Shown here: in pieces, positions 8,337-55,111 of the stretch
Position numbering within the stretch: position 1 is the first letter of the stretch
Layout of the letters: every line of letters starts with the position of its first letter
Assembly: GCA_964501105.1 (NCBI GenBank)
Contig: CAZCRG010000001.1
Location: 1-60,397 of the forward strand
DNA length: 60,397 bases
Origin: Candidatus Hydrothermarchaeota archaeon
GTDB taxonomy: Archaea > Hydrothermarchaeota > Hydrothermarchaeia > Hydrothermarchaeales > BMS3B
Reading direction: 5' to 3'
Translations under genes and position numbers: made by a program
The notes under the pieces: model-generated
Database searches by the model: none
What the model saw: only the letters and a program-made list of their open reading frames with translations
What the model was told of the DNA's origin: nothing

Positions 8337-8452
8337 TAATCAGGCGTAAGAAAAGTTAACCTTGAGAAACTCTACAGCCTTTGGTTAAAAACAGCAGGCT
8401 TTTACTATAGGGTGGCGATACTAAAATATAAAGAGTGGGCGGGAGATTCCCA

Positions 8453-9625
8453 TTAAAGCTTCTCTCTCAGCTCCACAGCTTCCCTGAAGGCTTCAAGAAC
8501 TTTATCAATCTCCTCCTGGCTTAAGCCATAGACACTTAGCTTGATGTGCTTGCTCAGCCCTTTGTGAAGGCCAACAATATTGCGCTTAATCATGTGCTCA
8601 GCCAGGAAGAAGCCCCTGCGCTTGTGCTTCTTGGAAATTTCCCAGAAAACAGGAGTCTCAAAGTGCAGCAGGTGATGCTTCTTGGGGCGCTCGCCGAGAA
8701 GCATTATGTCGCCTTCGCCAATCTCTTCCAGCCTATCCACAAAGTCGTTAATCTTCTTCAGCTCTTCATCCCAGCGCTTCACCCTCTCCTTAACATAATC
8801 AAAGGTTAGCATTGAGCTTATCACCGGGATGCCACCAATACTACAACCGAAGAGGTTGGGAAGCTTCTTTCCAAAGACTCTGCCTGTCCACTCTGCCTTG
8901 GACTTTGAGGTGGCAAAGATCTTCTTGCTCCACTCGTAGGTTGTAACAACATAGCCCAGAGGTCCCAGGGAGGCCATGGACTTGTGAGCACTGACAGTAA
9001 GAAACTGGGCCCTCATCTTTTTAAGATTCACTGGTGCCACACCAGCAGTGTAAGCAGCATTAACCATGTAAGGTATATCCTTCTCCTCACAGAGCTTTCC
9101 TATCTCTTCCACAGGGGCCAAATTGCCGAAGTAAGGGTCTGCATGGGTAACCACCACAAGGGCAGGCCTACCAACCTCTTCAATTTTCTCCTCAAAGGCT
9201 TCAACAGTAACCCTGTACTCCGGGTAGCCTGTGTGGGGTGGCTCAACAACCTTCAAGCCTGCCATCTCAGCAGCTATATTTGTGGAGTAGTGAGAATTGG
9301 GATCAACAACAATAACAGGCTCGATACCTTCTTCCTTGCAGTAGTCAGCAATTGTCTTCATCACTGCAAACTGGGCACCTCTGCAGCCGAAGGTGTGCTC
9401 TGCCTCATCTCCACCAAAGAATTCAGCCACCTGACCTAAGAAACTTGTAACTGGGGGCTTGGAAACAAGACTGCTCCTGCCCTGAAGGCAGTCGTGGCAT
9501 AGAGAATAGCCTACCTCAAGCCAGCCCTCTTCACATAACTTTGCCTGAACCTCCTCAGGCACAATTCCTCCCCTCATGAGAGGGTTAATAATTATGTGGT
9601 CCTTATATCTGTTAACAAACTTCAC
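8453..9625 (-). CDS. pscS: O-phosphoseryl-tRNA(Cys):Cys-tRNA synthase (SepCysS)
   Basis: INPLMRGG, CxDC near the N-terminus, PLP-lysine region SAHKSMAS, KRWDEE and LSVYGLSQEEIDKVLEAF align along the whole length with my recollection of the M. jannaschii MJ1678 family. The GTG start overlaps the upstream stop (GTGA). Confidence 0.88.
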   Translation of the reverse strand: MKFVNRYKDHIIINPLMRGGIVPEEVQAKLCEEGWLEVGYSLCHDCLQGRSSLVSKPPVTSFLGQVAEFFGGDEAEHTFGCRGAQFAVMKTIADYCKEEGIEPVIVVDPNSHYSTNIAAEMAGLKVVEPPHTGYPEYRVTVEAFEEKIEEVGRPALVVVTHADPYFGNLAPVEEIGKLCEEKDIPYMVNAAYTAGVAPVNLKKMRAQFLTVSAHKSMASLGPLGYVVTTYEWSKKIFATSKSKAEWTGRVFGKKLPNLFGCSIGGIPVISSMLTFDYVKERVKRWDEELKKINDFVDRLEEIGEGDIMLLGERPKKHHLLHFETPVFWEISKKHKRRGFFLAEHMIKRNIVGLHKGLSKHIKLSVYGLSQEEIDKVLEAFREAVELREKL

Positions 9626-10524
9626 ACTTTCACCTTCGCCACAAGGTCTTCAATTATTTCCCTGATACCCTTTCCAGTATTTAAATCTATACCTTCACCG
9701 TCCCTCAGGGTGGCAAAGACATCGCTCCAGGGACCTCGTGTTTTTACTTCCAGGGGCTTCTCCACCTTAACTTCACCCCTTATGGGCAGGTGAATTGTAA
9801 TATAGCTCACCCTTCCGGTGTTGTCTTTATTGAGATAAATCCTCACACTTCTGCCATTAATTCTACCAAAGAAGTAGTCTATTCCCTTTTCAAAGCCCAG
9901 ACTCTCAAGGGCATTCACTATTCTTGGAGGTAGGTCACTGGTTCTGCAGCCGCAGAGAGCACCGCAGCTCTTCTGCATGGCTTTAACCTTAACCTCCAGC
10001 TCCTTAAAGAACTCTGGAGGCGCTCCCAGAATTACCTCGCCATCCTTGTAATCTGCAAACATCCTTGCGCCACCGCAGAGAAAGCTGAGATTTGCCCTTC
10101 CTTCCTTTATAGGTAAGGCAGTTACCTCACCACAAACTGCTATTCCGCCCTTAAAATGGGCCTCAAGGCCATCAACCAGGGCTGCTATCTCCATAGCCTG
10201 CCTGGGATTGAGAATCATTAACACCACATCAGGGTTGGGGAGCTTCTCCAGAGGGGCAATGAGAACTGCCTTTGTTTTTGCAGGCTGAAGTCTGGGCTGG
10301 AGGTCAATAAAGCTAGGCTCCTGAAAGCCCAGGGCTATAAGCGATTCTGGGCATTCCTCATCATCCTCCAGCATCAGCAAGGTCTCTCCAAGAGCAGCCC
10401 TCTTTACAAACTCGCAGTACCTGCCTGGCCTCTCAGGCCGTGGGTAACCCTGGGGCAACTGCTCAAAAATCTTAATTCCAACAAGACTGTACCTACTTCC
10501 AAAGTATTCTCTTATTGCCTTCAT
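9622..10524 (-). CDS. DUF169 (COG2043)-like Cys-rich protein with a C-terminal extension of about 70 aa
   Basis: The N-terminal two thirds resemble DUF169 (YCEFVKRA, ECPESLIALGF, SFLCGGARMF, CGALCGC). There are 8 Cys in total. The stop overlaps the SepCysS start. Confidence 0.55.
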   Translation of the reverse strand: MKAIREYFGSRYSLVGIKIFEQLPQGYPRPERPGRYCEFVKRAALGETLLMLEDDEECPESLIALGFQEPSFIDLQPRLQPAKTKAVLIAPLEKLPNPDVVLMILNPRQAMEIAALVDGLEAHFKGGIAVCGEVTALPIKEGRANLSFLCGGARMFADYKDGEVILGAPPEFFKELEVKVKAMQKSCGALCGCRTSDLPPRIVNALESLGFEKGIDYFFGRINGRSVRIYLNKDNTGRVSYITIHLPIRGEVKVEKPLEVKTRGPWSDVFATLRDGEGIDLNTGKGIREIIEDLVAKVKV

Positions 10525-10531
10525 AAAATTC

Positions 10532-10783
10532 TTACTCCAGAGCCGGGATTTCTATATAAATCTCGTAGGTCATATCTCCAACTTTTTTAACCTCTGTTAC
10601 CTTGTAACCCTTGTTCTCCTGCTGAAGGCTTCTCGGTATACTTTCCACTGCTGGTGGGTAGTCCACTATAACCTTGAGCTTTCCTCCACCTGAGTAGCCT
10701 ATCTCCTCGGCCTTGATCTTTGTGTAAACAAAGGTGTCGGGGCAGCGCTCTCCCCTTAAATCAAGAGTCTCATAGTCGCTCAT
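10532..10783 (-). CDS. TusA/SirA-like sulfur carrier protein
   Basis: 83 aa. LDLRGERCPDTF matches the TusA D-x-R/K-G-x-x-CP active-site Cys motif. The ATGA junction overlaps the E1 gene's stop. Confidence 0.7.
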   Translation of the reverse strand: MSDYETLDLRGERCPDTFVYTKIKAEEIGYSGGGKLKVIVDYPPAVESIPRSLQQENKGYKVTEVKKVGDMTYEIYIEIPALE

Positions 10784-11568
10784 TCACCCACCTCACACAC
10801 ATCTTCAACTGGCTTAGGTATGAACTCAGCGCCACAGGCAGAACAGTTGTCTCTCCTCCTTATATTCACCACATCGAAGCTCATAATGTCGGCATTTATA
10901 ATCAGAAGCTTATTTTTCAGCCCTATCTCTAAACCTGCAAGGTAGCGGATTGCCTCTGTTGCCTGAATGGCTCCAACTATTCCAGTAACACTTCCAAGGA
11001 TTCCTGCCTCCCTGCAGGTGGGTATAGTACCCTGAGGTGGTGCCTCAGGAAAGACACACCTGAAGCAGGCTGTCTCCTTAGGAATAATACTCATAACCCT
11101 GCCTTCATACATCAGAGCAGCGCCGTGAAAGAGGGGAATGTTATTAACTACAGCAGCATCGTTGACAGCATAGCGCACAGCAAAGTTGTCTGTGCCGTCG
11201 ACTATTGCATCGTAGCCCTTCAGAAGATCAAAGGCATTGTCGTAGGTTATCTTCTCAGTTATCCCCTCAACTTTAATCTCAGGGTTGACCTCCTGAAGTC
11301 TCCTTGCTGCAAGCTTTGCCTTGGGCTTACCTACATCTTCAGGTGTGTAGAGAAACTGGCGATTTAAATTGCTCAGCTCCACATTGTCCATGTCAAAGAT
11401 GTGGATTTCTCCCACACCTGCAAGAGTTAAGTAAGTGGAAACTGGCGAGCCCAGGCCGCCTGCACCAGTAACTGCCACCTTTGCTGCTTTGAGTTTTGCC
11501 TGCTCCTTTGTTCCAAAATCCTGAAGAATCAACTGCCTTGAGTAGCGTTTAATCTCATTTAAATTCAC
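10780..11568 (-). CDS. ThiF/MoeB/UbaA-type E1-like adenylyltransferase
   Basis: RYSRQ, nucleotide loop GAGGLGS, catalytic region PTCREAGILG, and zinc pairs CFRC and CSAC. There is no rhodanese domain. The GTG start overlaps the upstream stop. Confidence 0.85.
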   Translation of the reverse strand: MNLNEIKRYSRQLILQDFGTKEQAKLKAAKVAVTGAGGLGSPVSTYLTLAGVGEIHIFDMDNVELSNLNRQFLYTPEDVGKPKAKLAARRLQEVNPEIKVEGITEKITYDNAFDLLKGYDAIVDGTDNFAVRYAVNDAAVVNNIPLFHGAALMYEGRVMSIIPKETACFRCVFPEAPPQGTIPTCREAGILGSVTGIVGAIQATEAIRYLAGLEIGLKNKLLIINADIMSFDVVNIRRRDNCSACGAEFIPKPVEDVCEVGE

Positions 11569-12032
11569 TTTTTCTCCTCCCTGATATACTCCTCAATCTC
11601 TCTTACGAATTTGTTGCCAAGGGCTTCAATTCTTAGCTCAAAGTCCTCATCAACATCTTCTCCAATGCCTATGCCGGGGCATTCCTCGGCTGCCCCCACC
11701 TTGAGAACAATCTCATCAGAGTAGATAACTCCATCGAAGAGGAAGGGATACATCTGGCAGGAGAGAGGTTTGGCATCAAGGTTGTGAAGAGAGCAGGAAA
11801 AGTCATCTTTGAGAAATATGCATCTGTCCTGCTTTCCCTTAAGTCTGAAGAGTCCCTTTCCTGCCTCGCTCTCAATGAACTCCTCTGGCTTAAGTCCTGT
11901 TACTTCTGAGATTCTCTCCTTTCCTCTGGAGGTTATAACTCTCCCGGGAGTGCAGCACTTTGCTCTGCATTCCTTGTAAAGACAGGTGAAGCGCTCAATT
12001 CTGTAGGGTGTATATACAATCAAAAAACTCAA
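11565..12032 (-). CDS. YkgJ/UPF0153-type cysteine-cluster protein (putative Fe-S or Zn protein)
   Basis: CLYKECRAKCC near the N-terminus and further Cys (CIF, CSLH, CQMYPF, ECPG) are typical of the CxxCxxCC family. The TTG start overlaps the MoaD-like gene's stop. Confidence 0.55.
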   Translation of the reverse strand: MSFLIVYTPYRIERFTCLYKECRAKCCTPGRVITSRGKERISEVTGLKPEEFIESEAGKGLFRLKGKQDRCIFLKDDFSCSLHNLDAKPLSCQMYPFLFDGVIYSDEIVLKVGAAEECPGIGIGEDVDEDFELRIEALGNKFVREIEEYIREEKK

Positions 12033-12298
12033 CCTCCAGAAACTGCTGGAAGAATTGAGAGCACATCATCAGGGTTAAGCTCAGTATCTAAACCCTTTTT
12101 GAACCTTACATCCTCATTGTTGTGGAAAATATTTATAAACTGCTTTATATCGCCGCCATCAAGGATTTTCTCTGCAAAGCCAGGGCTCTTTGCTTCTATC
12201 TTTTCAATTACCTCTCTGACAGTACTTCCTTCCACTTCAATCTCTGGTTTTCCTCCTGAAAACTTCCTGAGTGGTGTAGCAAGCCTTACAACTACCAT
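12029..12298 (-). CDS. MoaD/ThiS-family ubiquitin-like sulfur carrier (SAMP-like) ending in Gly-Gly
   Basis: 89 aa ending ILPAVSGG followed directly by the stop codon. The pattern is beta-grasp-like. The start overlaps the ThrC-like gene's stop by 7 nt (ATGGTAG). Confidence 0.75.
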   Translation of the reverse strand: MVVVRLATPLRKFSGGKPEIEVEGSTVREVIEKIEAKSPGFAEKILDGGDIKQFINIFHNNEDVRFKKGLDTELNPDDVLSILPAVSGG

Positions 12299-13527
12299 AT
12301 CACAGCCTCCTTTTTGAGAAGTTTATTAAATTCATCCAGATCAGGTGAAATTTGCTGGGGCTCTTTAAGTCTGTTAATAAGAACATCTTGAGTTTTAAGT
12401 CCATTTCCTGTGATATAGGCCACAACTTTCTCATCTTTATCAATTTCTCCAGCTTCCACCAGATTTTTAAGAGTTCCTATAACAACGCCGCCTGCTGTCT
12501 CTGTGAAGATCCCTTCAGTTCTGGCGAGAAGCTTTATCCCCTCTATTATCTCATCATCATTAGCTGCACCTGCTGTACCTCCTGTTTCTTTGATAAGCTT
12601 CACAGCATAGAAGCCGTCGGCAGGGTTGCCAATGGCGAGGCTCTGCTCTATTGTATTGGGCTTCACTGGCCTTATGGGTTCCCCAGTCCTGAAGGCAGTT
12701 GTTACAGGAGAGCATCCAGAGCTCTGGGCAGCAGTCACTTTTGTGTTAACCTCATCTATCAATCCAGTTACTTCAAGCTCCTTCAGCCCCTTGTGGATTT
12801 TTGTCAGCAGAGAGCCTGAACCCACAGGCGCTATATAGCGCTCTGGAGCCTCCCAGCCCAGCTGCTCTGCAACCTCAAAACCGAGAGTTTTTGAACCCTC
12901 GCTGTAGTAGGGCCTTATATTTATATTCACAAAGGCCCACTCATAGTAGCTGGCTATCTCTGTGCACAGCCTGTTGACATCATCATAGTTCCCATCAACA
13001 GCCACAAGGTTGGGGTCATAGGCTAAAGTGGGTATAATCTTTCCCAGGCTGAGATTTTTTGGTATGAAGATGTAGCAGTTGAGCTTTGCCTTGGCTGCAT
13101 GGGCAGCAACACTGTTGGCAAGATTTCCTGTTGAAGCACAGGCTACTGTGTCAAAGCCGAACTCTATAGCCTTGCTAACTGCTACTGAAACCACTCTATC
13201 CTTGAAGGAGAAGGTCGGGTTGACACTGTCATTTTTGATGTACAATTCCCTGAGGCCAAGAGCTTCAGCAAGGTTGTCAGCCTTATGAAGAGGTGTGAAG
13301 CCTGCCCTCAAATCCACAACTTTTTTTCTGTCCTCAACAGGGAGAAAGTCTATATAGCGCCACAGTGTTGGCTCACCCTTCTCTATTTTCTCTCTGGATA
13401 CCCTTTCTTTAATCACTTCATAATCATACTCAACTTCAAGAGGTCCAAAGCATTCTTCACAGATATTTACAGGTTGAACCTCATATTCTGCTCCGCAGTT
13501 TCTGCATTTTAATCCAATTACCTTCAT
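12292..13527 (-). CDS. Threonine-synthase-family PLP enzyme (fold type II) with an N-terminal zinc ribbon
   Basis: CRNCG...CEEC ribbon, PLP-lysine motif SFKDR, and a Gly-rich loop GSGSL. AGGTGAT lies upstream of the ATG. It may be authentic ThrC or a thiocarboxylate-dependent sulfhydrylase (see findings). Confidence 0.8.
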   Translation of the reverse strand: MKVIGLKCRNCGAEYEVQPVNICEECFGPLEVEYDYEVIKERVSREKIEKGEPTLWRYIDFLPVEDRKKVVDLRAGFTPLHKADNLAEALGLRELYIKNDSVNPTFSFKDRVVSVAVSKAIEFGFDTVACASTGNLANSVAAHAAKAKLNCYIFIPKNLSLGKIIPTLAYDPNLVAVDGNYDDVNRLCTEIASYYEWAFVNINIRPYYSEGSKTLGFEVAEQLGWEAPERYIAPVGSGSLLTKIHKGLKELEVTGLIDEVNTKVTAAQSSGCSPVTTAFRTGEPIRPVKPNTIEQSLAIGNPADGFYAVKLIKETGGTAGAANDDEIIEGIKLLARTEGIFTETAGGVVIGTLKNLVEAGEIDKDEKVVAYITGNGLKTQDVLINRLKEPQQISPDLDEFNKLLKKEAVIW

Positions 13528-13580
13528 GGCATCACCTAAGATAGTAGATATTATTACTACTATATATATTTTTTGGTGAT

Positions 13581-13601
13581 ATAATTACTATTAGTAATTA
13601 T
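13581..13601. promoter_or_regulatory. Perfect 21-bp palindrome in the divergent promoter region (candidate operator)
   Basis: ATAATTACTA-T-TAGTAATTAT has 10-nt arms. It lies between the TATA-like elements serving the sulfur operon (minus strand) and PHI (plus strand). A related element TAGTAG-N9-CTACTA sits at 13542-13562 and shares the ATTACTA half-site. Confidence 0.4.
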
Positions 13602-13642
13602 TGTGCTAAGCCTTAAATATTATCAGATTTTAAGATATACCT

Positions 13643-26903: not shown

Positions 26904-27587
26904 ATGGAGGTATTCGAAGTGAATGCGGTAAGTTTTATAGGTGGCTTTCTCCCCTATGTAGCTTTTGTTGTCTTTTCTCTTGGAATACTCTACAGAGTTT
27001 ATAGATGGGTTTCTTCACCCCAACCAACACCCTGGCCTCTGTACCCCCTGAGGAGCAGGTTATCTGCCATGGCTGAGGTTCTGATTATGAAACCTCACTT
27101 TAAAAGTGATAAGTCTCTTTGGGCTGTGGCCATAGTATTTCACCTGGCCTTTCTTGTGAGTTCTCTTCTTCACCTTAAAGATTTCACAGCAGGCGAGGTG
27201 GCTGCCTTTGAGGGCACAGCCTTTTACCTGGGAATTTTCGCTGGCGTTGGAGCAGTGGTTACCACAATCCTCTTCTGGCTGAGGAGGTTCACAATCCCCA
27301 GAGTCAGAGTAGTAACTATGTTTGAAGACCACTTCGCCCTTGCTCTTCTTCTGGCAACTCTAATGCTGGGCACCTATCTGAGAGTCACCCATGCTGTTGA
27401 GCCGCAGGAAGTGCAGAGCTACATTTACAGCCTTGCCGCTCTGAAGCCAGCCAATATACCTTCCAACCCTGTTTTTCTTGCTCACCTTTTCCTGGCTGAG
27501 ATATATCTCATGTACTTCCCCTTCTCAAAGCCCATGCATGCCTTCTCTTCTATGATAAATAGCTTTATTACTACTGAGGTGAGGTAA
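26904..27587 (+). CDS. NarI/DsrM/HdrE-like membrane di-heme cytochrome b subunit
   Basis: 227 aa with 5 TM helices and conserved His in the helices (VFHLAF, LLHLKDF, LAHLF). Its stop abuts the start of the DsrK/HdrD-like gene (TAAATG). Confidence 0.7.
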   Translation: MEVFEVNAVSFIGGFLPYVAFVVFSLGILYRVYRWVSSPQPTPWPLYPLRSRLSAMAEVLIMKPHFKSDKSLWAVAIVFHLAFLVSSLLHLKDFTAGEVAAFEGTAFYLGIFAGVGAVVTTILFWLRRFTIPRVRVVTMFEDHFALALLLATLMLGTYLRVTHAVEPQEVQSYIYSLAALKPANIPSNPVFLAHLFLAEIYLMYFPFSKPMHAFSSMINSFITTEVR

Positions 27588-28904
27588 ATGGATGCTTACA
27601 GAGCTATAAAAGCAGAGGTTGATTACTCAGCCCTCGCAAAAGAAGTTGACAGCGCTGTGGCAGGAATTAAAGCACCAAGGCTTCTTTTAACCAGTCTGGA
27701 AACCTGCTCAAAATGTGGAGCCTGTGCTGAGCAGTGCCATGTTTACCTGGGCTCTGGAAAAAAGGAGATTTACAACCCTGCCTACAGAGCCAACCTTCTG
27801 AGGAAGCTCTACAAGAGGCACCACAGCATTACAGGGAAGCTAATGAAAGCACTGAATATGAGCAATGGTATAAATGCAGAGTACATTGAGAAGCTTGTGG
27901 AGAGTAGCTACAGGTGCACCCTCTGCAGGCGCTGCTCAAGTTTCTGCACCTTCAAAATAGACAACACTCTAATAACCAGAACAGCCAGAGCCCTGGTCTC
28001 AAAGCACGGTATAGCGCCGAGAAATCTAAAGGTCAGTGTTGAAGCTCATCTCAATACAGGCAATGTCTCAAAGATGCCAAAGGCAGCTTTCATCAACACC
28101 ATTGAGTTTCTTGAGGAAGAGCTGAAAGAGGAGACTGGTGAAGACATAAAGATACCCATAGACAAGAAGAAAGCTGATGTGTTCTTCCTGGCTCCAGTGG
28201 TCGACTTTATATCCCATGCCGAGAATATCATGAATATTGCCAAGCTCTTTCACTATGCTGGCGTTGACTGGACAATAAGCAGCGAGTACTACGATGCCGT
28301 TAACTTTGGAGCCTTTTTCAACGATGAAGCTCTCAAGCTAATAATCAAGATGATGGTCTCAAAGGTTAAGGCCCTCCAACCCAGGAATCTCGTTATAGGG
28401 GAGTGCGGCCATGCTACAAGAGTGGCCAAGTTCTTCGCCGGACCTCTCTCTGGCGAAACCCTCCCCTTCAGAGTGAAAAGTATTATGGAAGTCCTCGACG
28501 AACTCCTGAAGCAGGAAAAGCTCGCCCTCGACCCCAATAAGAACAAGCAGAAGGTAACCTATCACGACCCCTGCAATCTGGCAAGGATGAGTGGAGTAAT
28601 AGAGGAGCCCAGAAATATTCTCAAAGCCAGTGTGAAGCACTTTGTTGAAATGACACCCAGAGGCGAGGAGAACTTCTGCTGCGGCGGCGGCGGTGGCGTT
28701 GTTGTGATAGATGAGCTGGAAGACTTCAGAAATGAAGTCTCAGGCAGGGTTAAGGCTCAGCAGATTCGTGATACCAAGGCAGAGATAGTAGCTACTGCCT
28801 GCGCCAACTGCAAGAAGCAGCTTCATGGAATAAGTGAACACTACAAACTTGGCGTAGAGGTTCTCGGCGTCAGCGACCTTGCAGCCCAGGCGCTGATAAA
28901 ATAA
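27588..28904 (+). CDS. DsrK/HdrD-like Fe-S oxidoreductase with CCG domains
   Basis: Two ferredoxin motifs (CSKCGACAEQC, CTLCRRCSSFC) and two CCG-type Cys clusters (ECGHATR/DPCNLAR and NFCCGGGGG/CANCK). Confidence 0.85.
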   Translation: MDAYRAIKAEVDYSALAKEVDSAVAGIKAPRLLLTSLETCSKCGACAEQCHVYLGSGKKEIYNPAYRANLLRKLYKRHHSITGKLMKALNMSNGINAEYIEKLVESSYRCTLCRRCSSFCTFKIDNTLITRTARALVSKHGIAPRNLKVSVEAHLNTGNVSKMPKAAFINTIEFLEEELKEETGEDIKIPIDKKKADVFFLAPVVDFISHAENIMNIAKLFHYAGVDWTISSEYYDAVNFGAFFNDEALKLIIKMMVSKVKALQPRNLVIGECGHATRVAKFFAGPLSGETLPFRVKSIMEVLDELLKQEKLALDPNKNKQKVTYHDPCNLARMSGVIEEPRNILKASVKHFVEMTPRGEENFCCGGGGGVVVIDELEDFRNEVSGRVKAQQIRDTKAEIVATACANCKKQLHGISEHYKLGVEVLGVSDLAAQALIK

Positions 28905-31034: not shown

Positions 31035-34000
31035 ATGGTTTACATCTCCAGAATAAGCCTGAGGAACTTCAAGTCCTTCAGGAGGGCCAGCCTTCCAATA
31101 CCCAGGGGCTTTACCTGTATAGTCGGCCCCAACGGCTCTGGGAAGAGCAACATAGTTGATGCTATCTGCTTTGTTCTGGGAAGAAGCAGTGCCAAAAGCC
31201 TTCGAGCAGAGCGCTTCTCTGATTTAATTTTCAATGGCGGCAAAAAGGGAACACCTGCCAAGGAAGCTGAGGTTTCCATCTATTTTGACAACTCTGCAAG
31301 GGAACTTCCCTTAAACACAAGAGAGGTGAAAATCTCCAGGAGGGTGGATGCCAGCGGGAGCAGTGTATATCTCCTTAACGACAAGAGAACAACAAGAAAT
31401 GAGATTCTTGATATCCTCAGTATGGTTAATATTAATCCAGATGGCCACAATATTGTGCTTCAGGGAGATATTACAAGAATAATAGAGATGAACCCCATTG
31501 AAAGGCGTAAGATAATAGATGAAATAGCTGGAATTGCTGAATACGACGAGAGAAAAAATAAGGCACTCAGGGAACTGGAAAAGGTTCAGGACAACCTTTC
31601 AAGAGCGAAGGATGTTTTTAAAGAGATCTCCTACCAGCTCAGAAAGCTTGAAAAGGAAAAGCAGGATGCCCAGCGTTATGAGTATCTCACCAGGGAAATC
31701 AAGAGAAATAAGGCTATAGTACTCCAGTCTAAGTATTTAGAAGCTAAAGAGGACCTTGAGGAGCTTGAAAAGAATATTAAAAAATCTGAGAAAAAAATTG
31801 AAAAATTTTCTAAACATATTGAGATTCTTTCCTTAAAAAATAAAATAAAAAAGGAGCAGATTGAGAAAATCAACAGAGAAATTGTTGTAAGGGAAGAAAC
31901 TGAGCACATTGAGATTTTTAAAAAGGTTGAGAGTTTAAGAGGTCAGTTTAATCTATTGAAACATGATGTCGAAACTCTGAAGGCCGAGATTGAATCAAAA
32001 GCTTCAAGGCTCAAGGCTATAGATGAGGAGAGCTCAAAGCTACTTGAAGAGAAGAGTAAAAATGAGGAAGAAATAGAAAAGCTGAAGAGGAAAAGAACTG
32101 AAATCTCCTCGAGAGTTTCTTCTCTCAGGAAAGAGATAAGAAGTGATTACACAAGGCTCACTGAAGCTGATGAAAAAACAAGGGACAGAAGACTTGCTCT
32201 GGCTGAGGTATCAAAGAAACTGGAGGAGAAGAACTCCAGCTTTAATGAGCTTCACAGAGAGCTGGCTCTACTGAGAGATAAGGCTGAGGCAAAAGAGAAA
32301 GCTTCTGAAGAGCTCAGCAATGAAATTGAGGATAGAAAAAGGAAGCTTGCTAATGAGAGGGAGAGTTTGAGGATTCTTCAGGAGAATATTAAAAAAGCTG
32401 AAGATAGAGTTTCAGAACTCCATGCAAGAGGGCAGATTTCAAAAGACAGAGTTAAAACCCTTAAAGAGAAGCTTTTAAATATATCATCAAAGCTGGATTT
32501 TTATATTAAGGAGTACGCAAAGCTGGAGGCTGAGTACAGGGCTATTGAAAGAATTAAGAAGGGGAAGGGAAGCTTAAACAGGGCTGTGGCTGAGATTTTG
32601 AGGCTAAGGGACGAGAATATAATCTCTGGCATTTATGGCACTATAGCAGAGCTGGGAAAAGTTGAGAAGCGATATTCTAAGGCTCTGGAGGTGGCAGCAG
32701 GAGGTGGAATGCTCAATATTGTTGTGGAGAGCGACGAAGTGGCAAAGCGCTGTATTGAACACCTGAAAAAGAATAAAATAGGCAGGGCAACCTTCCTGCC
32801 TCTTAATAAGCTGAGAGGTGTGAAGAAAAGGCCAGAGGCAGAGTTTGTGGCGAGAGAAGGTATAGGCTTTGCCATAGACTTAGTACGCTTCAACAGGAAG
32901 TTCAAAAAGGCCTTTGAGCAGGTTTTCAAAAGTACTGTTGTGGTGGATGATATAGACTTTGCAAGGCAGTATATTGGCGAGGCGAGAATGGTTACTCTTG
33001 ATGGCGACCTGGTTGAAGAGAGCGGTAGGATGACAGGAGGTTACTACTATCCCTCAAGTGCTGCAAGTTTTGAGACTGTGGATGAGGAAAAGGAGAAGAT
33101 TGAGAGACTTGCATCTCAGATTAAGTCTTTAACTCATGAAAAAGAGAAACTCGAGAAAGAGCTTGAAAGAGCCAGGGAGGAGCTTGAAAGGCTGGAAGCT
33201 GAGGAGAGGAGTCTTGAGTCCGAAGTGGAGATTGGCAGGGAGAAGATAAAAGTAAAGAAAAAGGAGATTGAGGAGATTGAGACAACTCTTGCAAAAAGGG
33301 AGGCAGAACTTGTAGAGTTAAAAAAGGAGATTTTAGAGATAACAGGCAGGATAAAAGAGATTGAGCCTGAGTGGGAAAAACTCAGGAATGAAATGGAAAC
33401 GCTTCAGCAGGAGAAGGCAAAGCTGGAGGAAGAGCTTTCTTCCAGTGGAGTTGAGAGCTTTCTGGAGGAGATTAAGAAAAAGGAGGAAGAGCTCAGGAAG
33501 CTTGAAAGGGAAGCTGAAGCTGCAGGCTCAAAAATTGAAGTGATTGAAGCCAAGAATAAGGAGATTGTACAGAAGAGAGTCAGAGAGCTTGCTCTGGAGA
33601 AGGAGTCTCTTAAAGCTGAGGTTGTTGAGGGCGAGGCTGAACTGGAGAAAAGGAGTAAAGAGCTTATAGAGCTTGAGTCGAGGCTCAGGGAGGAGGAGAA
33701 CAGGGAGAGGATAATAAAGAGGGAAATTGAGAGGCTGAAAAAGAGGCGGGATTTTCTATCAAAAGGTATAAATTTGATAACAAAAAAGATTGAGGAGCTT
33801 CGGGAGAACAGGGATAAAACTCTCAGAAAGGTGGAGAAGTTCAGAATTGAAAAGGCCAGAGTGGAGGTAAATCTTGAGAACCTCATCTTATCCCTGAAGG
33901 AGTTCTCTGAGCTTGAGATTGAGCTTATTGCTCCAATAGAGACAGAAGAGATTGAAAAAGAGATAGCCAGGATGGAGGCTGAGAAGAAATCACTGGAACC

Positions 34001-36370: not shown

Positions 36371-37003
36371 ATGCGCTATCTTGACAATCTTGATACTGAA
36401 TTTGAGATAAAAATTGTTGATGCAGAGCTTAAGGGAGTGAAGGTTCAGCCCTCCAGTAGTGAGTTCAGGGGCTTCAGAGAGGAGAAGTTCGAGGAGATAA
36501 GGCAGAGTTATGACATTAAAACCATAAAGGACCATCCCATTATCAGAGCCTACAGAGACTTCTACTGGAGAGTTGGAATAGACCCCACAAAGATCAGGCC
36601 CAGCAGTGAGGCATTGATAAGAAGGGTGCTCCAGGGCAGGAGTATTCCTGAAATTAATAATGTGGTGGATGCCTATAACCTTGCTTCTATGCTCACCTTT
36701 ATTTCTATTGGTGCCTATGATAGAGAAAAGCTGGAGGGAGAACTTACCCTGAGAAGGTCTCACGGCGAGAGCTTCACAGGCATAGGGGGGAAGAAGTTAA
36801 TTACTAAAGGTGAGATTGTGGTGAGCGATGAGGAAAAGATTATAAACATCTTCCCCTATAGAGATGCCGAGGCTACCAAGGTTACTGAGGATACTTCTGA
36901 AGTGCTCTTTCTCTTTTCAGGAGTTAAGGGGATAGAGAAGAGCTACCTTGAAGAAGCAGCTGAGAAAACCCTTGAAATTGTGAGGCGCTTCTGTGTGGTG
37001 TGA
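36371..37003 (+). CDS. B3/B4 tRNA-binding-domain protein (PheT B3_4-like)
   Basis: The pattern SSEALIRRVLQGRSIPEINNVVDAYNLASMLTFISIGAYD is characteristic of stand-alone B3/4 domain proteins. Confidence 0.65.
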   Translation: MRYLDNLDTEFEIKIVDAELKGVKVQPSSSEFRGFREEKFEEIRQSYDIKTIKDHPIIRAYRDFYWRVGIDPTKIRPSSEALIRRVLQGRSIPEINNVVDAYNLASMLTFISIGAYDREKLEGELTLRRSHGESFTGIGGKKLITKGEIVVSDEEKIINIFPYRDAEATKVTEDTSEVLFLFSGVKGIEKSYLEEAAEKTLEIVRRFCVV

Positions 37004-54466: not shown

Positions 54467-54512
54467 GAATACCCTCCTGGGCTTTAATAATCTATCCTCC
54501 CTGAGCATTTAG

Positions 54513-54587
54513 CGGGCCCGACGGGATTCGAACCCGCGACACCCGGCTTAAAAGGCCGGTGCTCTAGCCAGACTGAGCTACGGGCCC
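54513..54587 (-). tRNA. tRNA-Lys (anticodon UUU)
   Basis: The minus strand reads GGGCCCG-TA-GCTCAGTCTGGCTAGAGC-A-CCGGC-CTTTTAA-GCCGG-GTGTC-GCGGGTTCGAATCCCGT-CGGGCCC-G. The cloverleaf is complete and no CCA is encoded. Confidence 0.9.
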
Positions 54588-54740
54588 ATACACAACCTGC
54601 GCTAGAAGAAAGAAAGCCCCGACTACTTCTGAACAAATATTTATAAAATGACGAAGCTACTTTAGAATAACTTAAACTGGTCATCACGGGGCTACCTCTC
54701 TTCTCAGGGGGGATTTTCATATTTTCTATAATTCTGGAGA

Positions 54741-54815
54741 CGCCCTGGTCGGGATTTGAACCCGAGTCGCAGGAGTGACAGTCCTGCATGATAGGCCGGT
54801 CTACACTACCAGGGC
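54741..54815 (-). tRNA. tRNA-Asp (anticodon GUC)
   Basis: The minus strand reads GCCCTGG-TA-GTGTAGACCGGCCTATCAT-GCAGG-ACTGTCAC-TCCTGC-GAC-TCGGGTTCAAATCCCGA-CCAGGGC-G. This is a typical archaeal tRNA-Asp. Confidence 0.9.
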
Positions 54816-54873
54816 AACATCCAGAGATGATAGGATTTAACCATCTTCTAAAATCTTCAATAATTATGAGGGG

Positions 54874-54991
54874 GCTGGCAGCGTCCTCGCCTTCCCGCGA
54901 GCTCGCGCATCGCAGTACAAGCGAGATCGCTGGAGGGCTTAACTTCCGTGTTCTAATGGGAACGGGTGTGGCCCCTCCGCTGTGGCCGCCA
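54874..54991 (-). rRNA. rrf: 5S ribosomal RNA (ends approximate, about +/-4 nt)
   Basis: The minus strand reads TGGCGGCCACAGCGGAGGGGCCACACCCGTTCCCATTAGAACACGGAAGTTAAGCCCTCCAGCGAT...GCTGCCAG. Helix I pairs GGCGGC with GCTGCC, and the loop C/helix III consensus CCGTTCCCAT..GAACACGGAAGTTAAGC is present. Confidence 0.85.
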
Positions 54992-55111
54992 TACCCTTCA
55001 AGTGACCTTTGCATACTAAATTCTTGCTTACTCTTTGCATTTTGCTTTTGGGCTCTTGCATAAAAGTTGGTGTAACTATTGCAAATATTATCGTAACAGG
55101 TACTGCGCAGG

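Follow-up and report, generated by a model that had tools for sequence, protein, structure and literature searches.

What delivers sulfur in the cell to SepCysS (Sep-tRNA:Cys-tRNA synthase), the pyridoxal phosphate (PLP)-dependent enzyme of tRNA-dependent cysteine biosynthesis? The enzyme is active in vitro with simple sulfur donors, and to our knowledge its in vivo sulfur source has been an open question since its discovery. The mechanism given in the literature goes no further than the attack of a persulfide on the dehydroalanyl-tRNA (PMC5424206). The question is raised anew by a locus in a 60,397-nucleotide stretch of DNA (the window) from a Candidatus Hydrothermarchaeota archaeon (GenBank assembly GCA_964501105.1, contig CAZCRG010000001.1, positions 1-60,397, forward strand), in which SepCysS is the last of seven closely packed minus-strand genes at 8453-13527. 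A preliminary description of this stretch had regarded these genes as a sulfur module feeding both Cys-tRNA formation and a sulfhydrylase related to threonine synthase (ThrC). In the comparative analysis reported here the tightest partner of SepCysS is a two-domain DUF169 protein, often accompanied by TusA, and not the E1-like enzyme or the Gly-Gly-terminated carrier encoded in the same operon.

A translationally coupled operon of seven genes

The open reading frame (ORF) listing of the window shows that the seven minus-strand genes encode, in order, a ThrC-like PLP enzyme (12292-13527, 411 amino acids), a ThiS/MoaD-type carrier with a C-terminal GG (12029-12298, 89 amino acids), a cysteine-rich protein of the CxxCxxCC/YkgJ superfamily (11565-12032, 155 amino acids), a ThiF/MoeB-type E1-like adenylyltransferase (10780-11568, 262 amino acids), a TusA-like sulfurtransferase (10532-10783, 83 amino acids), the two-domain DUF169 protein (9622-10524, 300 amino acids) and SepCysS (8453-9625, 390 amino acids). 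Reading of the minus strand reproduced exactly the genes and junctions of the preliminary description: the ThrC-like and carrier genes share the seven nucleotides ATGGTAG (12292-12298), and four-nucleotide overlaps join the carrier to the CxxCxxCC gene (TTGA, 12029-12032), the latter to the ThiF gene (GTGA, 11565-11568), the ThiF stop to the TusA start (ATGA, 10780-10783) and the DUF169 gene to that of SepCysS (GTGA, 9622-9625). Only the TusA and DUF169 genes do not overlap, being separated by the 7-nucleotide gap GAATTTT (10525-10531). A Shine-Dalgarno-like motif resembling GGAGG or GGTG lies 4-10 nucleotides 5' of all seven starts, three of which are non-ATG codons (TTG, GTG and GTG) that were set as the first start after a stop and match the N-termini of homologues. 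Overlaps occur at 13 of the 49 same-strand junctions of the window, five of these 13 being within the operon; at the rate outside the cluster (8/43) the chance of five or more overlaps in six junctions is about 0.001. The overlaps and Shine-Dalgarno-like motifs support one tightly, translationally coupled operon, as originally claimed, and it is probably transcribed as a single message; the gaps between its genes are too small to hold an internal promoter. Profile searches upheld all seven gene identities, that of the CxxCxxCC protein only by way of its orthologues.

Conserved linkage of SepCysS with the DUF169 protein

The SepCysS of the operon scores 384.4 bits against the subfamily model NF006810 (cut-off 301), lies just under the cut-off of the equivalog model TIGR02539 (354.8 against 365.25 bits) and matches the Methanocaldococcus jannaschii enzyme (3wkr) with an E-value of 4e-84. 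Its PLP-binding lysine K215 (in SAHKSMA) and the cysteines C43 and C46 (GYSLCHDC) and C261 (FGCSIGG) align with the corresponding M. jannaschii residues and are invariant in 15 homologues.

The comparison set comprised more than 130 related loci (labelled L001, L002 and so on). A DUF169-profile scan with one genome per species yielded 47 loci, and a metagenome scan anchored on SepCysS yielded 80, of which 61 were assessable and 19 too short. Among the 47 species-level loci, 39 encode the two-domain form of DUF169: SepCysS is adjacent in 31, not adjacent in five (the Pyrohabitans group), and the gene lies at a contig edge in three, so that the pairing is present in 31 of 36 assessable cases. 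Short single-domain forms account for six further loci, none with an adjacent SepCysS, and in the remaining two the gene is cut by the contig end and its form could not be assessed. From the other side, DUF169 adjoins SepCysS in 38 of the 61 assessable metagenome loci. The adjacency spans Altiarchaeota, Caldisericum, Bathyarchaeia, one Promethearchaeota metagenome-assembled genome (MAG) and unclassified bacteria.

The whole operon also recurs with differing flanks (L001, L006/L017, L004, L016, L018, L021, L024, L026, L059 and L067). L001 keeps all seven genes and their order between unrelated flanks, with a SepCysS 87% identical to that of the window; the order is likewise retained on a 1.9-Mb contig of Candidatus Hydrothermarchaeum profundi (L006/L017) and, with a Thi4 gene added after ThiS, in L004 of the Hydrothermarchaeales. 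Rearranged but linked versions are found in Bathyarchaeia, Altiarchaeota, Caldisericota and unclassified bacterial MAGs, and the E1, carrier and ThrC-like genes accompany DUF169-SepCysS in at least five orders: ThiS-ThiF-DUF169-SepCysS-TusA-ThrC-like in the bacterial MAGs L035, L114 and L124; PALP-ThiS-ThiF-TusA-ThiI-like-thioredoxin-DUF169-SepCysS in L058; ThrC-like-ThiS-x-DUF169-SepCysS-thioredoxin-NadA in L044, L045 and L057 of Bathyarchaeia; ThrC-like-CxxC-ThiS-ThiF...TusA-DUF169-SepCysS in L029 and L052; and ThiF-TusA-SepCysS-DUF169-thioredoxin in L037 and L038. The linkage of SepCysS to the E1, carrier and TusA genes, on which the preliminary description had staked its proposal, is therefore kept in related and distant genomes alike, and a linkage that outlasts gene reshuffling in several phyla usually denotes functional coupling.

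Where the cluster is broken, the breakpoints are informative as to which of these associations is the strongest. In L007 the split falls between TusA and DUF169, with ThiS-Thi4-CxxC-ThiF-TusA lying 6.5 kb away from DUF169-SepCysS. The core [TusA]-DUF169-SepCysS occurs with no adjacent ThiF in several Bathyarchaeia (L033, L036, L039-L043 and L074-L077), and with neither ThiF nor ThiS adjacent in loci of Bathyarchaeia, Altiarchaeota and Promethearchaeota. As SepCysS keeps DUF169, and often TusA, when the cluster breaks, the evidence favors a TusA/DUF169 persulfide over a thiocarboxylate as its direct donor. The alternative, which is the strongest reading of the preliminary description and whereby the ThiS thiocarboxylate would itself be the nucleophile attacking the PLP-bound dehydroalanyl-tRNA in SepCysS, just as CysO-COSH acts on the aminoacrylate in CysM, with TusA and DUF169 only loading the carrier, does gain from the linkage of ThiS and ThiF to DUF169-SepCysS in at least five gene orders across phyla and from the thiocarboxylate-using, CysO/CysM-like pair that forms the cysteine arm of the bacterial counterparts described below. 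It gains also from a metagenome contig (L072:158-4038) in which ThrC-like-ThiS-CxxC-ThiF runs, after 19 nucleotides, straight into SepCysS with no TusA or DUF169, which might represent a naturally occurring deletion or else point to a direct link between E1/carrier and SepCysS. However, not only do the broken clusters leave SepCysS with DUF169 rather than with ThiS/ThiF, but an aminoacyl-tRNA bearing a thioester adduct would be at risk of an S-to-N acyl shift that yields N-acylated Cys-tRNA, and the operon encodes no JAMM-type hydrolase; moreover, the three cysteines to which a part in persulfide and Fe-S chemistry has been ascribed are all kept in SepCysS. Hence, we regard direct donation by the thiocarboxylate as improbable.

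Several genes of sulfur or redox metabolism were observed around these clusters. In Bathyarchaeia-type loci (L041, L043, L044, L045, L048, L056 and L057) a small thioredoxin-like gene and/or NadA (quinolinate synthase) follows SepCysS, a pairing that also holds in L056, where DUF169 is absent. In L028:695-7047 (Altiarchaeota) and L052:9435-15783 (a related locus of an uncultured archaeon) the order is TusA-thioredoxin-DUF169-SepCysS, and about 1.5 kb beyond these modules lie genes for ATP sulfurylase, a second TusA and a 283-residue sulfite-reductase-like protein, placing assimilatory sulfate reduction beside the SepCysS module. In the Pyrohabitans lineage two sulfite-reductase-like genes of the NIR_SIR family precede a cluster of the other six genes (L011:3870-6165 and L015:3942-6237), which is followed by a gene for an HdrA-like FAD/4Fe-4S protein of about 675 residues (L010:2112-4148, L012:3807-5837 and L015:11028-13055).

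The two-domain DUF169 protein

Sequence profile analysis of the 300-residue protein recovered DUF169 (PF02596, COG2043) with an E-value of 6e-31, the match covering only residues 4-177. Six cysteines are invariant among its relatives: C37, C58, C131 and C150 of the N-terminal domain, which are common to DUF169 proteins in general, and C191 and C193, forming a CGC motif that, along with a C-terminal domain of about 100 residues, is confined to the long form and lies in the region (178-300) outside the Pfam model. A profile search of 1.84 billion representative proteins recovered 827 DUF169 relatives, of which about 20-25 clusters span both domains. The AlphaFold2 model (pLDDT 84.8) is confident except in two cysteine-bearing loops. 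Foldseek searches of the PDB with this model found no fold match for the N-terminal domain and a weak resemblance of the C-terminal domain to type III secretion chaperones (E-value 7e-4, TM-score about 0.5); a sequence search of the PDB with the DUF169 profile recovered nothing meaningful. The chaperone-like match is read as hinting at protein binding rather than as homology.

Five of the six short forms, which lack the C-terminal domain, lie beside TusA and/or ThiF, and short relatives in Chloroflexi occur with TusA, ThiF, JAMM and NifU genes and no SepCysS. This distribution implies that the N-terminal domain tracks the TusA/E1 relay and the C-terminal domain tracks SepCysS. DUF169 was independently reported as an occasional member of SepRS operons, and "a few sulfur metabolism genes" were noted to accompany clade VII SepCysS (Mukai et al., PMC8762117). 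In a Bathyarchaeia locus (L033:3345-6880) TusA lies between two DUF169 paralogues (241 and 345 residues), and genes for SepCysS and a thioredoxin-like protein come next.

These features make the two-domain DUF169 protein a candidate for a partner that delivers sulfur to SepCysS or serves it as an adaptor. A more specific proposal is that it might be a third component of tRNA-dependent cysteine biosynthesis, which passes sulfur from TusA, and ultimately from sulfide or sulfite reduction, to one SepCysS subfamily while also docking this enzyme; it would then be a functional counterpart of SepCysE or SepCysSn that in addition carries the sulfur. We advance this tentatively, as a plausible reading that we hold with somewhat less than even confidence.

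Carrier, E1, TusA and CxxCxxCC proteins

The carrier belongs to the ThiS family (PF02597, E-value 5.7e-15). Its C-terminus is VSGG, and GG ends all 34 of the orthologues collected, so that no processing would be needed to expose it. A second, separate ThiS gene is present in L001. The E1-like protein (PF00899, E-value 5.5e-84) has the nucleotide-binding motif GAGGLGS at residue 35, two CxxC pairs (C168/C171 and C242/C245) and a loop cysteine at 185, and has no rhodanese domain; it falls under every equivalog cut-off (MoeB 273.9 against 449 bits, UbaA 264.6 against 450, ThiF 249.1 against 275). TusA (PF01206, E-value 1.7e-15) has a single cysteine, Cys14, in the sequence DLRGERCPDT, the D-L-R-G-E-x-C-P motif being kept in its orthologues, and in loci of archaea and of bacteria its gene adjoins ThiF, DUF169 or both.

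The 155-residue protein has eight cysteines (17, 22, 26, 27, 71, 80, 92 and 118) and a histidine (H83) that are invariant across 14 orthologues, with an N-terminal Cx4Cx3CC signature. When searched against family models at E-values up to 0.01 it gave only weak DUF3109 and FliB matches and none to PF03692 (CxxCxxCC/YkgJ, UPF0153), to which 11 of the 14 orthologues do match (best E-value 4e-9); a PDB sequence search with it recovered nothing meaningful. Its gene is restricted to loci that also have ThrC-like, ThiS and ThiF genes, and it is a putative metal-binding or Fe-S redox partner of the carrier/E1 arm. The notion that this protein and thioredoxin are mutually exclusive, interchangeable reductants was discarded since L052 has both.

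In four Hydrothermarchaeales loci (L004:3409-4194, L007:154-963, L024:1207-2007 and L034) a gene for the thiazole synthase Thi4 is inserted between ThiS and the CxxCxxCC gene. Clustering of Thi4 with ThiS and ThiF has been reported (preprint 10.1101/2025.09.23.678117), and the insertion suggests that the carrier may serve several clients.

The ThrC-like enzyme defines a distinct subfamily

The first protein of the operon is a member of the PALP family (E-value 6.7e-71); it has a Cys4 zinc ribbon at the N-terminus, and its PLP lysine is K109. The protein scores 296 bits against the generic threonine synthase model TIGR00260 (cut-off 167) and 297.9 against PRK08197, just under the cut-off of 303. 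Cysteate synthase was ruled out as its identity (TIGR03844, 75 bits against a cut-off of 325). The protein shows 35-39% identity to four solved threonine synthases as against 58-62% to ThiS-linked homologues from Nitrospirota and Omnitrophota, and in a neighbor-joining tree (computed with no bootstrap) the archaeal and bacterial ThiS-linked proteins cluster together, apart from the solved enzymes. This clade has replacements at 22 positions at which the four solved threonine synthases do not vary; the PLP-phosphate loop GNAGN has become GSGSL, and NPYRxEGQKT has become RPYYxEGSKT. The clade further displays an insertion of 6-8 residues bearing a conserved cysteine, and Cys272 is conserved; the signature residues of the window protein are common to its bacterial ThiS-linked homologues. 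It thus appears to be a subfamily distinct from the characterized threonine synthases. In most loci that have it the gene lies directly upstream of ThiS. Given this adjacency to a GG carrier accompanied by an E1, and the separation of the clade with its 22 signature positions from the solved enzymes, the protein best fits a candidate thiocarboxylate-dependent homocysteine synthase similar to MetM, its substrate being predicted by analogy.

A search with a bacterial ThiS-linked ThrC-like protein found at least 8000 homologues at E-values up to 1e-30, the matches listed being from uncultured anaerobes and labelled threonine synthase. Loci from Nitrospirota and Omnitrophota show the order TusA-ThrC-like-ThiS-ThiF-NIL, and from the sequence comparisons the TusA/ThrC-like/ThiS/ThiF module appears to be old and widespread in anaerobes. 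In L139:2690-10045, L140:4753-9592 and L141:4705-9739, which derive from Nitrospirota and Omnitrophota, except that L140 is a JGI metagenome contig with no stated taxon, ThiS and PALP genes precede genes for a sulfite-reductase-like protein (287-296 residues), TusA, ThrC-like, ThiS, ThiF and a NIL-domain protein (79-85 residues). ThiS and PALP are fused in L140 and L141 (378-379 residues), and in L139 an Aminotran_5 gene and a second TusA gene separate the sulfite-reductase-like gene from TusA. The named ThrC-like proteins of these clusters are all annotated as threonine synthase. This arrangement resembles a thiocarboxylate route that would serve cysteine and homocysteine synthesis together; its cysteine arm would be a CysO/CysM-like ThiS+PALP pair, whose place appears to be taken by DUF169-SepCysS in the archaeal operon.

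A quite different view of these genes would be that they are housekeeping genes brought together by chance, with the ThrC-like protein being the threonine synthase of the cell, and ThiS/ThiF a SAMP/UbaA-type pair for molybdopterin synthesis, tRNA thiolation or protein conjugation. The scores above the TIGR00260 cut-off, the fact that the best PDB relatives are threonine synthases, and the marginal pass of the carrier against the SAMP1 model NF041918 (61.2 bits against a cut-off of 60) are in keeping with such a view. Yet the adjacency of ThrC-like and ThiS, often with overlapping frames, is kept from archaea to Nitrospirota and Omnitrophota, and the 22 departures from otherwise invariant positions include the PLP-phosphate loop. 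Likewise, the E1 falls far below the UbaA and MoeB thresholds, L001 has its second, separate ThiS gene, and no molybdenum cofactor or tRNA-thiolation genes occur in the cluster. Together these features make a chance assembly highly improbable.

A two-arm model of sulfur flow

Taken together, the gene contexts suggest a model in which a single persulfide source feeds two arms, the operon thereby making both sulfur amino acids with no involvement of a cysteine desulfurase. The common sulfur currency would be a persulfide on TusA, loaded from reduced inorganic sulfur, a supply proposed because relatives have genes for ATP sulfurylase and sulfite-reductase-like proteins beside the cluster. In the homocysteine arm, ThiF would adenylate the Gly-Gly terminus of the ThiS-like carrier, and TusA sulfur would turn the adenylated carrier into a thiocarboxylate (ThiS-COSH), with the CxxCxxCC protein possibly supplying a reducing step. 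The ThrC-like enzyme could then use ThiS-COSH and O-phosphohomoserine to form homocysteine, as does MetM/MetO in Streptomyces; in some relatives the carrier probably also serves the inserted Thi4. In the cysteine arm, the two-domain DUF169 protein would use its conserved cysteines, or a metal site, to accept TusA sulfur and, docking through its C-terminal chaperone-like domain, hand it to SepCysS, whose known persulfide/PLP chemistry would turn Sep-tRNA(Cys) into Cys-tRNA(Cys). All residues required for these roles are present, namely the GG of ThiS, Cys14 of TusA, the nucleotide loop and zinc cysteines of ThiF, K109 of the ThrC-like enzyme, and K215, C43, C46 and C261 of SepCysS. The gene identities, catalytic residues, reading-frame coupling and conservation of linkage are the established foundation on which predictions are made for the sulfur-transfer steps, for what the ThrC-like enzyme uses as substrate and for what DUF169 does. 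With each transfer read from gene context, we consider the two-arm model somewhat more probable than not.

Several observations weigh against this model. The two-domain DUF169 protein is rare and hence cannot be a universal partner of SepCysS; indeed, 23 of the 61 assessable SepCysS loci of this subfamily have no adjacent DUF169, and in the L072 contig described above ThiF runs directly into SepCysS with neither TusA nor DUF169. Candidatus Pyrohabitans keeps the six genes from ThrC-like to DUF169, with SepCysS located elsewhere, beside AspRS, which indicates that DUF169 can part from SepCysS and stay with the E1/TusA arm. Co-transcription does not hold for L008, L070 and L071, where the SepCysS gene is in convergent orientation to the other six. 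On the side of the homocysteine arm, the ThrC-like protein passes the generic thrC model, and a domain search found no JAMM/Mec domain among the operon proteins.

Part of this evidence would suit a situation in which the two arms are mechanistically separate and merely co-regulated for sulfur assimilation, with DUF169 belonging to the TusA/ThiF/ThiS arm, for instance to load or reduce the carrier, and SepCysS drawing independently on sulfide or some other donor. The retention of DUF169 with ThiF and TusA in Pyrohabitans, the convergent SepCysS genes, the Chloroflexi short forms found with relay genes and no SepCysS, and the sufficiency of simple sulfur donors for SepCysS in vitro can all be accommodated in this manner. 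Nevertheless, separation of the arms does not account for the CGC motif and C-terminal domain marking exactly those DUF169 forms that adjoin SepCysS, for the persistence of [TusA]-DUF169-SepCysS in loci of three archaeal groups with no adjacent ThiF/ThiS, or for the independent report of DUF169 in SepRS operons (PMC8762117). We therefore judge it unlikely, and give preference to the two-arm model with DUF169 as the link between TusA and SepCysS.

Relationship to known systems

The homocysteine arm most closely resembles the MetM/MetO system of Streptomyces albulus (Hasebe et al. 2024), which, as summarized in GapMind 2026 and PMC12172450, uses the threonine-synthase homologue MetM and the MetO thiocarboxylate to convert O-phosphohomoserine to homocysteine; MetM is reported to be routinely misannotated as threonine synthase. 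Both systems have a threonine-synthase homologue adjoining a ThiS/MoaD-type carrier, with an E1 present and O-phosphohomoserine as the substrate, this being the expected one in the archaeal case. In contrast to MetM/MetO, the operon has a TusA gene of its own and an E1 that lacks a rhodanese domain; its carrier is encoded with the terminal GG in place; and no Mec/JAMM gene or upstream S-adenosylmethionine (SAM) riboswitch was found by domain and Rfam searches, which may mean that these are lineage features rather than defining ones. The archaeal operon also merges the module with CxxCxxCC, DUF169 and SepCysS genes; the likeness to MetM/MetO was judged by gene context.

CysO/CysM/MoeZ/Mec of Mycobacterium tuberculosis, which functions in cysteine synthesis, and HcyS/HcyF/MetY of Wolinella succinogenes share with the present operon the principle of an E1-activated GG carrier that yields a thiocarboxylate for a PLP sulfhydrylase, encoded in a sulfur-assimilation operon. 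They differ in using CysM or MetY in place of a ThrC-like enzyme and in including a JAMM protease, and neither is tied to tRNA-dependent cysteine synthesis or DUF169. Gene neighborhoods of both types have been catalogued (PMC1779556).

With the SepRS-SepCysS-SepCysE transsulfursome of class I methanogens (PMC5688128; PMC5424206; PMC8762117) the operon shares a SepCysS with the same PLP lysine and three cysteines, and the genetic coupling of an accessory protein to this enzyme. Here, however, the accessory protein is a cysteine-rich two-domain DUF169 protein and not the helical SepCysE or SepCysSn, TusA, ThiF and ThiS are encoded alongside, and no SepRS is present in the operon or the 60-kb window. 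At the level of the lineage, MBG-E (Hydrothermarchaeota) from Juan de Fuca crust has been reported with SepRS (PMC5424206). In methanogens, COG1900 with NIL-ferredoxin (for homocysteine) and COG2122 co-occur with SepCysS (Rauch and Perona, cited in PMC5424206). That set, too, ties SepCysS in strict anaerobes to a homocysteine pathway independent of cysteine desulfurase, but as a phylogenetic co-occurrence of unrelated enzymes, whereas here the association is physical, in one operon, and involves a ThrC-like/ThiS pair.

The closest relatives of the relay are the bacterial TusA-ThrC-like-ThiS-ThiF-NIL clusters, whose ThrC-like (the 58-62% identical homologues), ThiS, ThiF and TusA proteins are orthologous and in which cysteine and homocysteine arms likewise appear to share the relay. 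Their cysteine synthase would act on a free amino acid, as opposed to the archaeal DUF169 and SepCysS arm, which would act on tRNA, and a NIL domain is found where the archaeal operon has the CxxCxxCC protein. We know of no publication that names these bacterial clusters.

Flanking regions and other features of the window

The operon is preceded by a 115-bp AT-rich spacer (13528-13642, minus strand), common to a divergent SIS-domain gene, which is a putative promoter and leader: an A/T-rich, TATA-like run (aaaatatatata) lies about 30-45 nucleotides 5' of the ATG, and AGGTGAT lies 5 nucleotides before the start. An Rfam search 5' of the operon recovered no riboswitch or any other Rfam element. 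The SepCysS stop is followed by a 116-nucleotide spacer with T-rich runs (8337-8452, minus strand), the likely end of the operon, for which a terminator function is predicted. The next gene 3' of this spacer encodes a major facilitator superfamily (MFS) transporter, and the downstream gene is different in every homologous locus.

The remainder of the window is an ordinary archaeal chromosome, with genes for split RNA polymerase B and A subunits, EF-2, EF-1alpha, S7/S12/NusA, SMC/ScpA, DapA/DapB and SRP54; no SepRS, CysRS, ATP sulfurylase or sulfite reductase gene was found within its 60 kb. The nearest relatives of the operon proteins are from Hydrothermarchaeota MAGs (Candidatus Pyrohabitans and Candidatus Hydrothermarchaeum). 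At 26904-28904 a membrane cytochrome-b-like (Nitrate_red_gam) gene lies beside that of a CCG/4Fe-4S protein, a DsrMK- or HdrDE-like pair that hints at sulfur- or heterodisulfide-linked energy metabolism. The region 36371-37003 encodes a stand-alone B3/4-domain protein of 210 residues, with genes for a methyltransferase-like membrane protein and an ADP-dependent kinase on either side; the B3/4 domain is known from the PheRS beta subunit and tRNA-editing contexts. The very high GC skew (0.395) and AT skew (0.272) at 32001-34000 fall inside the gene for the 1184-residue SMC protein and are presumably due to its purine-rich coiled-coil coding sequence. Finally, a 176-residue ORF at 54484-55014 is spurious, the stretch comprising a 5S rRNA (54873-54993), tRNA-Lys and tRNA-Asp, directly upstream, at higher window coordinates, of the minus-strand RNA polymerase B genes.

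Implications

Every component family of the operon is already known, as are thiocarboxylate-fed PLP sulfhydrylases as a kind; what is new is their merger with tRNA-dependent cysteine synthesis and the conserved pairing of DUF169 with SepCysS. A full-text search of the literature, incomplete in coverage, found no paper linking SepCysS with TusA, ThiF, ThiS or DUF169, nor any describing the seven-gene combination, in agreement with the novelty that had been claimed for it. The idea of a sulfur module feeding both Cys-tRNA and a ThrC-like sulfhydrylase is retained as regards the conserved linkage; it needs revision in that the ThrC-like/ThiS/E1 part was known in kind from MetM/MetO and belongs to the wider anaerobe module, and in that the lasting partner of SepCysS is DUF169 and not the E1 or carrier.

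These findings supply clonable candidates for a donor chain, running from TusA through the two-domain DUF169 protein to SepCysS, with ThiF/ThiS as an alternative route, so that the sulfur-donor question becomes testable by a few in vitro reconstitutions. If delivery by DUF169 is true, the SepCysS donor would be identified for Hydrothermarchaeota, Bathyarchaeia, Altiarchaeota, some Asgard archaea and a few bacteria. With the ThrC-like clade, the MetM/MetO-type route to homocysteine would reach into archaea and many anaerobic bacteria, where these enzymes carry threonine-synthase annotations, and this would affect the metabolic reconstruction of uncultured subsurface lineages. More generally, the comparison of the archaeal and bacterial clusters suggests that desulfurase-independent sulfur assimilation in strict anaerobes is built as one relay with interchangeable cysteine arms, namely a CysO/CysM-like arm in bacteria and a DUF169/SepCysS arm in these archaea.

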